Below are positions 52,129 through 52,745 of a stretch of 64,000 bases of DNA, piece after piece. This DNA is from an uncultured Bacteroidales bacterium (GTDB lineage Bacteria; Bacteroidota; Bacteroidia; Bacteroidales; B18-G4). Position numbers and translations under genes: made by a program. Under the pieces are notes generated by a model, which was not told the origin of the DNA, searched no databases, and saw only the letters and a program-made list of their open reading frames with translations. The stretch is from NCBI GenBank assembly GCA_964508895.1, contig CAZDWF010000002.1:2645-66644 (forward strand), written 5' to 3'. Position 1 is the stretch's first letter. Each line of letters starts with the position of its first letter.

Positions 52129-52163
52129 CGTTACGCGTAACGCGTGACGGGATGGTTACGCGT
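52129..52163. repeat. Left flank of the four-helix-bundle cassette: CGTNACG heptads x3 plus a TACGCGT unit
   Basis: Units: cgttacg cgtaacg cgtgacg ggatggt tacgcgt. GC-rich MluI-like palindromes in AT-rich DNA. Confidence 0.8.
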
Positions 52164-52336
52164 TATCATGTTACAGGAACCTGGCATGATAAGAATTCAT
52201 ATAACACCCCGTCACTTAAGGGTTTTGAGATAATTTTAGAGATTATGCTAAATATAATCATGAAATTAGAGGGACATATAGGCTGGTTATTTATTAAGTA
52301 TAAAATGAATTTTATAAATACTCTAATAAATGAACA

Positions 52337-52699
52337 ATGACCCATAAAGATCTTGATGTCTGGAAAAAGGGAATGGACTTAGCTGCCATGATATACAAAT
52401 CAACCAATAACTTTCCTGAATCTGAAAAATATGGTTTGATTTCTCAGCTCAGGAGAGCATCAGTCTCAATTCCAAGTAATATTGCAGAAGGTGCTGCCAG
52501 GAATTCTAATTTAGAATTCATTCGATTTTTACATATCTCATTAGGTTCTCTTTCTGAGCTTGAAACACAAATAGATTTAGCTGTAAGGTTTCAATTTTTG
52601 AATGATGCTGAAGATATTGAAAAATACATAAACAGAATTCGTAACATGCTCTTCGGACTAATTAAATACCTGAAAGAAAAAAACAGCACCAAATCGTGA
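52337..52699 (+). CDS. Four-helix-bundle protein (23S rRNA intervening-sequence protein family; Avd-like fold)
   Basis: 120 aa. Family blocks LDVWKKGMDLA, QLRRASVSIPSNIAEG and SLGSLSELETQ. Confidence 0.8.
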   Translation: MTHKDLDVWKKGMDLAAMIYKSTNNFPESEKYGLISQLRRASVSIPSNIAEGAARNSNLEFIRFLHISLGSLSELETQIDLAVRFQFLNDAEDIEKYINRIRNMLFGLIKYLKEKNSTKS

Positions 52700-52708
52700 A
52701 ACAAGATT

Positions 52709-52745
52709 TCGCGTTACCTTCTCGTTACGCGTGACGCGTCACGAC
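52709..52745. repeat. Right flank of the four-helix-bundle cassette: CGTNACG heptads x3
   Basis: Sequence tcgcgttaccttct cgttacg cgtgacg cgtcacg ac. Because each unit is quasi-palindromic, it is both a direct and an inverted match to the left flank. Confidence 0.8.

Follow-up and report, generated by a model that had tools for sequence, protein, structure and literature searches.

A four-helix-bundle protein gene enclosed by complementary heptad arrays outside rRNA in an uncultured Bacteroidales bacterium, and the architecture of its family

The DNA analysed here is a stretch of 64,000 nucleotides (nt) from contig CAZDWF010000002.1 (assembly GCA_964508895.1) of an uncultured Bacteroidales bacterium; the whole stretch is called the window below. 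It contains a gene for a four-helix-bundle (4HB) protein of the '23S rRNA intervening sequence protein' (S23p) family, which lies between two mirror-oriented arrays of 7-nt units. We call the gene together with these arrays, or arms, the cassette. The two arms are complementary to each other, and the same anatomy was found around related genes of many phyla, mostly in sense with the neighbouring protein genes. An original prediction, made from the sequence of the window alone, had described the flanks of the gene as triple CGTNACG heptads. It had also likened the cassette to another one in the window, which carries a gene for an unrelated GxxExxY protein.

To our knowledge, the S23p/4HB family has solved structures and no known function. 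The window protein scored 125.3 bits against TIGR02436 ('four helix bundle protein', cutoff 24) and 129.4 bits against PF05635 (cutoff 33.8), and its closest solved structure is PDB 2GSC, XCC0516 of Xanthomonas campestris (E = 6.6e-29). The gene had been assigned correctly to the intervening sequence (IVS) family from the sequence. The protein can be aligned with its relatives over the full length, and 20 columns are invariant among the relatives. At E ≤ 1e-3, 22,196 clusters (50% identity) match the family. The closest relatives are just 60-66% identical to the window protein, and both bacteria and archaea are represented. A search with PADLOC gave no defence-system match for the 4HB protein. 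The 2GSC entry contains five chains, and the structure is cited as a homopentameric toroid in a passage of PMC4990558. In a predicted protein of 2,474 amino acids (P0248), 20 separate stretches match residues 23-73 of the 4HB protein. P0248 represents either a repeat that was mis-translated or 4HB-like segments in a giant tandem array.

The left flank reads CGTTACG CGTAACG CGTGACG at 52129-52149, followed by ggatggTTACGCGT, and the right flank reads CGTTACG CGTGACG CGTCACG at 52723-52743, preceded by tCGCGTTAC; both triplets are exactly as first described. They form the core of an inverted repeat with arms of 58 nt and 78% complementarity (Table 1), for which the alignment has a z-score of 11 against shuffles. 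The left array extends beyond the triplet first described and is best phased as GTTACGC GTAACGC GTGACGG gatg GTTACGC GTTATCA t GTTACAG (52130-52176), and the right arm contains ..CGCGTTAC cttct CGTTAC GCGTGAC GCGTCAC. The left-arm units are therefore GTTACGC, GTAACGC, and GTGACGG, and those of the right arm are GCGTNAC. The word CGTNACG occurs seven times in the window against 1.5 expected, a count that none of 100 shuffles reached, and six of the seven occurrences fall within the two flanks. All five ACGCGT sites of the window are also located there. CGTNACG appears in direct and inverted orientation at once because the variable part of the unit, CGC, creates ACGCGT. The flanks had been held to be the most GC-rich short stretches, which is not the case: their 21-nt GC contents of 62% and 67% rank 386 and 91 of 63,980. 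By CpG density, with six CpG each, they share first place among the 21-mers of the window.

In the predicted RNA fold of 52115-52760, both the minimum free energy (MFE) structure and the centroid are closed by the stem between the two arms (z = -7.1), in agreement with the long inter-flank stem that had been proposed. The spacer between the left arm and the start codon is probably non-coding and possibly a promoter region. A 62-amino-acid open reading frame (ORF) in the spacer (52152-52340) matched no family and had no homolog besides itself. No RNA family was found in an Rfam search of the cassette, and no second copy of the cassette was seen within the window. Exact look-ups of the 4HB protein and the neighbouring sigma factor of the extracytoplasmic function (ECF) type gave matches from one set of metagenome runs only, with the cassette 100% identical and in the same context in four samples. 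Neither an empty site nor a length variant of the locus was found among those matches.

Table 1. Coordinates of the features discussed, as positions of the window
Feature	Position	Strand	Description	Evidence
Whole cassette	52121-52751		4HB gene bracketed by two mirror-oriented 7-nt-unit arrays
Left (5') arm of inverted repeat	52121-52178			Sequence, inverted repeat, CGTNACG enrichment, MFE and centroid pairing with right arm
Spacer, left arm to start codon	52179-52336	+	AT-rich, 27% GC; longer than in most family members
4HB protein gene	52337-52699	+	120 amino acids, TIGR02436 / PF05635 (S23p)	Profile scores, structure match, alignment
Right (3') arm of inverted repeat	52694-52751		Overlaps 4HB stop codon	Sequence, inverted repeat, enrichment, folds
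Sulfatase-family gene, left neighbour	50134-52065	-	Divergent from 4HB gene
ECF sigma gene, right neighbour	52844-53329	+
GxxExxY protein gene	about 18186-18563	-	125 amino acids, TIGR04256 / PF13366, PD-(D/E)XK fold family	TIGR04256 135.7 bits (cutoff 35)
GxxExxY cassette arm, downstream of gene	18153-18190		Reads TTAACCGCAATAGACGCAAAGGAAGGCGCAATGGACGC
GxxExxY cassette arm, 16 nt upstream of gene start	18579-18617			Sequence, fold

The surroundings of related 4HB genes were compared in 80 loci, the best among at least 600 matches, with 42-60% identity to the query; 76 of them were usable. They come from many phyla, and the statements on the family below hold for this part of it. The two flanks were complementary with z > 5 against shuffles in 42 of the 76 loci. 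The mean lag-7 autocorrelation was 0.37 upstream and 0.38 downstream of the gene, compared with 0.26 in control segments, and lag 7 was the best lag in 44 of 76 upstream flanks and 50 of 76 downstream flanks but in only 7 of 136 controls. Heptad arrays were about 7.5-fold denser beside the 4HB gene than in the remainder of the fetched loci (88 in ~70 kb against 50 in ~300 kb). The complementarity is specific to each locus. The outer 21 nt formed 79% Watson-Crick pairs within a locus but 29% between loci (50% at the best register), and every position of the paired arms shows all four pair types. No locus of the 80 had more than one stray match to conserved 23S motifs, and no Rfam family was detected anywhere in the 64-kb window. 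The absence of an rRNA context, inferred originally for the window copy, is thus confirmed.

The units of the 5' arm follow the pattern GT(G/A/T)ANNN, and those of the 3' arm are its reverse complement. In the phase-aligned logo of the 5' arm, the frequencies are.91 for G,.80 for T,.53 for G at the third position (A.21, T.22), and.70 for A, followed by three variable positions; the information content is 3.72 bits against a permutation null of 2.64 (maximum 2.77). The 5' arm is rich in G (G 35%, C 11%) and the 3' arm is rich in C. An inverted repeat reads identically on both strands, and this polarity is therefore a property of the repeat and not of the direction of the gene. Examples of arm pairs are GAGTGAG x5 with ACTCCTC x4, CGTGAAA CGTGAAA GGTGAAA with TCACGTT x4, and GTGATCT.. 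with TCACTGA...; a 4HB gene on a Calothrix plasmid has GGGTGTA x4 on one side and CTACACC x4 on the other. CGTNACG of the window is the GTNA unit of the family in another phase (GTNACGC). The GTNACGC variant was also found in L007 (Acetothermia) and L030 (Ignavibacteriales). The closest homologs of the window protein have arms of the GTGA type and no CGTNACG arms, and many loci carry units unlike GTGA (GGTTTTC, AGTTTTT, GGGCGGC) while the protein is still 45-60% identical. Protein identity and arm similarity are weakly correlated (rho = 0.23). The arms therefore travel with the gene and change faster than it. As a marker of 4HB genes, CGTNACG itself fails, because other copies of the gene carry other heptads and because none of 35 viral loci with triple CGTNACG contained a 4HB or GxxExxY gene.

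Several loci show details of the arms. Two contigs (L204 and L205, P0004) share the same 119-amino-acid 4HB protein and the downstream sequence, whereas the heptads before the ATG read GTGAAGT GTGAAGA GTGATGA in one and GTGATGA x3 in the other. The start codon belongs to a heptad there, and the contigs tend to stop within arrays. On plasmid alpha of Nostoc PCC 7120 (L167, 1100-1620), the downstream array CTGCCCT x4 is kept and the upstream heptads are gone. The end of a transposase gene lies ~30 nt before the 4HB start codon, and the upstream arm seems to have been removed by the insertion of an insertion sequence. On two further contigs (L206 and L207, P0003), a heptad-armed 4HB cassette has a PIN-domain gene on one side and an MNT/HepT-like nucleotidyltransferase pair on the other, and toxin-antitoxin genes are numerous in the region. 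As 7 is not a multiple of 3, GTGA heptads were considered as three-frame stop signals. This idea was dropped as a general explanation because about one quarter of the units are GTTA and because GxxExxY units have no stops and often a period of 9.

The strand of the 4HB gene matches that of its upstream neighbour in 63 of 71 loci and that of its downstream neighbour in 63 of 73. In two Xanthomonadales loci (L023 and L064), the cassette fills the operon junction between accB and accC, which measures 10 nt in E. coli K-12. In L023, the heptads GGGAATA GGGAATG GAGAATG GGGAATC begin 3 nt past the accB stop codon, and the start codon of the 4HB gene lies within them. The 4HB stop codon is followed after 17 nt by C ATTCCCT ATTCCCC ATTCCCC ATTCCCG, and the ATG of accC follows 8 nt later. 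For the accB-accC cassette of Pseudoxanthomonas, the arms close the predicted RNA fold in both the MFE structure and the centroid. The cassette appears to be stably placed between accB and accC across genera of Xanthomonadales. In the supplement of PMC4692102 (Rehm et al.), a GGGAATC array between bccP (XCC0517) and XCC0516 overlaps the start codon of XCC0516. The crystallised member of the family therefore lies in the same kind of cassette.

The GxxExxY gene of the window is enclosed by a near-perfect inverted repeat of 37-38 nt (Table 1). Its protein is matched exactly over 125 residues by P0121, which carries PF13366. The predicted fold has a closing stem of 37 bp in the MFE structure and the centroid (z = -8.5), and the arms, TTAACCGCAATAGACGCAAAGGAAGGCGCAAT.., consist of CRCARAG units with an outer TTAACC, as is typical of this family. 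A sample of 80 metagenomic loci was fetched for GxxExxY and 76 were scored. The flanks were complementary with z > 5 in 41 of the 76, and the gene lies on the same strand as its upstream neighbour in 54 of 61 loci and as its downstream neighbour in 51 of 60. The repeats have a period of 9-10 nt with the core CRCARAG upstream and CTYTGYG downstream, and the outermost unit is often TT(A/C)ACC(G/A)CA(A/G)AG. The motifs do not cross between the families: for GT[GAT]AnnnGT[GAT]A, the counts per locus are 1.15 upstream of 4HB genes and 0.03 upstream of GxxExxY genes, and for CRCARAG they are 0.04 and 1.66, respectively. The parallel drawn earlier between the two cassettes thus stands for the inverted tandem-repeat arms, which both families possess, but not for the heptads, since the GxxExxY arms are built from 9-10-nt CRCARAG units. 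The suggestion that both proteins ride on the same kind of element agrees with the architecture in outline; given the distinct periods and cores and the lack of crossover, there is one architecture with family-specific repeats and not one shared element. Among ~600 kb of fetched loci, no third cargo family was found inside inverted tandem-repeat pairs, which instead held other 4HB genes, one 4HB pseudogene, and host genes between neighbouring elements. A TCAC-type array (TTCACTA TTCACCA TTCACTA TTCACT, 18795-18821) is located ~180 nt beyond the GxxExxY arm. It is in the 4HB style, unpaired and without a 4HB gene, and may have been left behind by a 4HB cassette that was lost.

Heptamer arrays also occur outside the cassettes. 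The window contains six further period-7 runs, as against 0-1 for periods 5, 6, 8, and 9 and none in most shuffles; these six have no CGTNACG unit and none is paired. They are AT-rich arrays at 13893-13921, 18795-18821, 42074-42099, 42520-42543, 49218-49251, and 55566-55582, with the units AAGATAC/AAGATGC, TTCACTA, AATTATT, CAAGGGG, AATTCTT, and ATTCAAT. The two arrays at ~42.1-42.5 kb lie on either side of a RidA (L-PSP) gene and lack complementarity. Period 7 clearly prevails among the short tandem repeats of the source genome. It prevails in tandem arrays outside the cassettes too, and heptamer arrays are common in GxxExxY loci as well. The other arrays of a 4HB locus are closer to the local cassette arms than to the arms elsewhere (mean similarity 10.6 vs 4.7), with 14 of 45 ranking first among 59 loci. 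Additional 4HB genes or a 4HB pseudogene are present in further inverted pairs, which enclose 360-450 nt, and heptad hairpins without an ORF, with loops of 8-30 nt, adjoin cassettes. In the 5-kb locus L007, CGTNACG-type arrays were observed at seven mostly intergenic sites (near 1637, 2012, 2060, 2459, 2936, 3717, and 4629), including an ORF-less hairpin at 2012-2083, and the unit type appears to be the common intergenic repeat of that genome. The GC-rich viral contigs (L169-L203) carry dense clusters of GTCACG/GTGACG/GTAACG, with up to 21 CGTNACG per locus. These clusters look like sites of GC-rich phages unrelated to the cassettes and may be operator or origin iterons of another system.

Intergenic heptamers have been reported before. 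The GGGAATC heptamers of Xanthomonas comprise 186 repeats with 70-75 convergent inverted pairs, Nostoc has GGGGA(C/T)T heptamers, and the over-representation of heptamers in bacteria was noted with their function left open (PMC4692102). TAACTGA heptamers, which occur in Beggiatoaceae, cyanobacteria, and Bacteroidetes, have been described as abutting start codons (MacGregor, PMC4679880), and heptanucleotide repeats of Calothrix are cited in a passage of the same paper. Like the cassette arms, the heptamers of Xanthomonas, Nostoc, Beggiatoaceae, and Calothrix are intergenic 7-nt tandem units that often lie at start codons. Unlike the cassette, most of these arrays enclose no gene, and the papers treat them as G-quadruplex or regulatory microsatellites with no tie to the 4HB family or to IVSs. 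In the open-access texts that we searched, the only link between the 4HB or GxxExxY families and flanking tandem repeats was one description of Coxiella. Within that literature, the family-wide rule for 4HB genes and the parallel rule for GxxExxY genes appear to be undescribed.

The window copy differs from the usual arrangement, in which the cassette lies in sense between co-directional genes and the arms abut the ORF. It sits between divergent genes, a configuration seen in just 2 of 68 loci. The left arm of this copy stops 158 nt short of the ATG and the last CGTNACG heptad lies 187 nt before it, whereas the distance from arm to ATG is usually 0-60 nt elsewhere. Besides the sulfatase-family and ECF sigma genes, the neighbours include a membrane protein, an integrase, and lipopolysaccharide-transport genes. 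A fragment resembling the 3' half of a tRNA (…GGGTTCGATTCCCTCCCGGGAGACA, minus strand) is located at 54085-54135, just upstream of a tyrosine integrase gene of the Bacteroidetes type (54290-55507). ARAGORN and Rfam gave no complete tRNA in the window. The fragment, which is 1.3 kb away from the cassette, looks like what remains of the attachment site of an integrative element. The integrase frame is broken at ~54887 into ORFs at 54149-54913 and 54966-55508. A metagenome contig that is otherwise identical up to this point (L001) has one gene of 405 amino acids; the two differ by a 1-nt indel, which therefore represents a frameshift or an assembly error.

The closest known system is the ORF-bearing IVS of 23S rRNA, as in Coxiella and Leptospira, in which an ORF of the same PF05635 family is read in sense with the host transcript. 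The IVS of Coxiella burnetii is a 428-nt element in helix 45 of the 23S rRNA. The inverted repeats at its ends make a 28-bp stem that is cut internally by RNase III, as demonstrated in vitro and by rapid amplification of cDNA ends, and its S23p ORF is in sense orientation and preceded by two or three tandem GACAGAT, variable between strains, with GACAGAA directly before the start codon (PMC4990558). RNase III excision without ligation has been shown for the IVSs of Coxiella, Leptospira, and Salmonella only (PMC4990558). The window element shares with the Coxiella IVS the enclosing stem, the tandem heptamers before the start codon, and a size of ~430-630 nt, and its complementary borders form the enclosing stem in the predicted fold. 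However, members of the IVS class lie inside a 23S (or 16S) rRNA gene, where they replace the loop of helix 9, 25, or 45, and the window cassette is located outside rRNA, in an intergenic region between divergent protein genes. Its arms are also longer (58 nt) and imperfect, a spacer of 158 nt precedes the ATG, and RNase III processing is proposed for it by analogy. The Coxiella heptad does not have the GT of the family core.

Since the anatomy equals that of an ORF-bearing rRNA IVS, the IVS mechanism is the best supported explanation. We consider the window element to be an IVS-type cassette outside rRNA, whose arms would pair in the transcript and whose stem would be cut by RNase III, with a probability of about 0.55. 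The cassette would be transcribed within a longer transcript, and its two arms would pair to form a stem of ~50 bp that closes off the ORF. This double-stranded stem would be a substrate of RNase III, and the guest gene would be separated from the host RNA with no ligation. Arm pairing in vivo and cleavage by RNase III are both modelled on Coxiella and Leptospira. The orientation of the cassettes fits such a mechanism in one respect: it equals that of ordinary genes, and the cassettes therefore behave as members of transcription units.

Several observations weigh against this explanation. The orientation bias is strong relative to a model of random insertion, yet it is the same as that of ordinary resident genes. 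The cassette agrees with its co-oriented neighbours in 57 of 63 loci, where 0.91 is expected for an ordinary middle gene by a Markov model built from adjacent host gene pairs of the same loci (144 of 190 co-oriented). The bias therefore does not prove that a special mechanism is at work. If an RNA stem were under selection, an enrichment in G·U pairs would be expected. However, the mismatches between the arms, read in the sense transcript, comprised 43 G·U and 46 A·C for 4HB cassettes, with no G·U excess, and 47 G·U and 43 A·C for GxxExxY cassettes, again with no signal. This argues against selection at the RNA level, and the identity of the arms may be kept by processes at the DNA level instead. 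The two arrays of a cassette are often unequal in length (24 against 3-4 units in one locus), and a plain RNase III stem needs no 7-nt periodicity, no conserved GTNA core, and no family-specific motif. In the window, the upstream gene is divergent and there is thus no host read-through into the cassette from the left. Scans for sigma-70 and Bacteroidetes-type promoters gave no usable plus-strand promoter upstream of the left arm. With the spacer as a further consideration, the left arm may be absent from the mRNA of this copy. The S23p ORF of Coxiella, for its part, is apparently untranslated and decaying (PMC4990558).

The missing G·U excess, the unequal arrays, the periodicity, the core, and the family-specific motifs suggest sequence-specific reading of the units by some factor. 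All loci have just one component in common, the encoded protein, which is a pentameric ring in the solved structure. The conservation of the core, the periodicity, and the motifs specific to each family prompt the speculative idea that the pentameric 4HB protein recognises its own GTNA heptads. The arrays would then be iteron-like binding sites, in DNA or single-stranded RNA, for the protein of their own cassette. We regard this as a tentative explanation with an appreciable chance of being right, although a clearly lower one than that of the IVS mechanism. Each subunit of the 4HB pentamer would read one GTNA heptad and the GxxExxY protein would read CRCARAG; binding would act in autoregulation, or would help to maintain or spread the repeats, somewhat as in RAYT-REP systems. 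For the omega repressor of inc18 plasmids, the binding sites are arrays of WATCACW heptads, either direct or inverted. These are likewise 7-bp arrays with a TCAC/GTGA core that are bound cooperatively by a small protein, but omega is a ribbon-helix-helix protein whose arrays are found in promoters and enclose no gene. The period and core that are specific to each protein family without crossover, the core kept across phyla while three unit positions drift, and the five chains of the toroid agree with binding by the cassette's protein, as do the resemblance of same-locus arrays to the local arms, the ORF-less hairpins beside cassettes, and the correlation between protein and arm similarity. However, co-inheritance explains that correlation equally well, and the information content of the logo is just moderately above its null. 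The units of many loci are far from GTGA at a protein identity of still 45-60%, the heptamer arrays of Xanthomonas far outnumber 4HB genes, and heptamer arrays are common in GxxExxY loci. This explanation is compatible with the RNA stem of the IVS mechanism and could be its missing half.

Mobility as DNA offers another account of the mirrored arms. The cassette would be a transposon, or resemble a miniature inverted-repeat transposable element, with subterminal repeats in terminal inverted repeats, and it would be moved by an enzyme encoded elsewhere. We consider this unlikely. In many loci, the arms are indeed mirror-identical from the outside inward, the relatives are divergent and scattered over bacteria and archaea, and CGTNACG arrays are confined to the cassette in a window whose other heptad arrays use AT-rich units. 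The GxxExxY arms end in a conserved unit, and an origin of IVSs as transposon remnants was proposed in older literature, according to a passage of PMC4990558. However, the outer boundaries of 33 cassettes showed neither a target-site duplication nor a common terminus, and the cassette encodes no transposase. There is one copy in the window, identical and in the same context in four metagenome samples, and the accB-accC position is apparently stable. The arms differ between nearly all copies, and a common sequence-specific transposase is therefore improbable. A chance placement of ordinary heptamer microsatellites around the gene is very unlikely. It could draw on the six other period-7 runs of the window, the prevalence of period 7 outside cassettes, the known over-representation of heptamers in bacteria (PMC4692102), and the viral CGTNACG triplets that have no 4HB gene. 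The flanks of the window cassette, however, are mutually complementary and their unit is seen in no other array of the 64 kb. None of those other arrays is paired, and in the family the arrays are enriched beside 4HB genes and match within, not between, loci. The least credible alternative is that the protein is an Avd-type accessory protein of a diversity-generating retroelement (DGR), with the repeats as its template or target machinery. Avd shares the four-helix-bundle fold, is a pentamer, and has distant sequence similarity, which is reflected in weak matches of the window protein to Avd models. However, the scores are far below the cutoffs (26.5 vs 80 bits for NF033474 and 17.1 vs 40 for the bAvd model PF22296), and the protein is not a member. 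The original prediction had advised looking for DGR components nearby. No reverse transcriptase lies within ~10 kb of the cassette, the genes of 42-64 kb contain no reverse transcriptase domain, and the repeat search for a template/variable repeat pair returned the inverted repeat of the flanks alone. A role in a DGR is thus refuted at this locus.

The relationship between repetitive extragenic palindromes (REPs) and RAYT genes offers a wider comparison. In REP/REPIN systems, inverted short repeats flank a single-copy RAYT gene, and gene-less copies occupy many intergenic sites. The arrays elsewhere in a 4HB locus, which resemble the local cassette arms, are similar in this respect. However, RAYT is an HUH/Y1 transposase with known chemistry, whereas no enzymatic activity is known for the 4HB protein, and each REP is a single palindromic unit, unlike the tandem heptads of the cassette arms. 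A joint reading can be formulated in which each of the two proteins would be the trans-acting partner of one repeat, 4HB of the GTNA heptads and GxxExxY of the CRCARAG 9-10-mers. The gene-bearing cassettes would be the autonomous form of such a repeat-plus-protein system, and the intergenic heptamer arrays and hairpins of Xanthomonas, cyanobacteria, Beggiatoaceae, and Bacteroidota would be its ORF-less derivatives. The classical IVSs of 23S rRNA would be a special case that landed in rRNA, and the whole would resemble the relationship of REPINs and RAYTs, with a non-enzymatic pentameric ring as its basis. An RNA intermediate might be involved in the spread, in view of the sense-only placement and of the kinship to Avd, a cofactor of reverse transcriptase. 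Taken as a whole, this joint reading is doubtful, although we rate it somewhat above transposition by an enzyme encoded elsewhere.

Bacterial rRNA intervening sequences were first described around 1990. Their origin and purpose, the function of S23p, and the excess of heptamers in bacterial intergenic DNA are three loose ends that may be one phenomenon. According to the present data, the layout of the IVS, a heptad stem with an S23p ORF, is the normal setting of the 4HB family outside rRNA. Cassettes of this kind occupy operons as essential as accBC, and a second, unrelated family of small proteins, GxxExxY, follows the same plan with a repeat of its own. They also matter for annotation: assemblies break at the arms, start codons are overlapped by them, and they may be misread as G-quadruplex motifs or regulatory microsatellites. 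The questions raised here are open to direct testing in culturable carriers, such as Xanthomonas campestris with XCC0516, Nostoc, and Flavobacteria.

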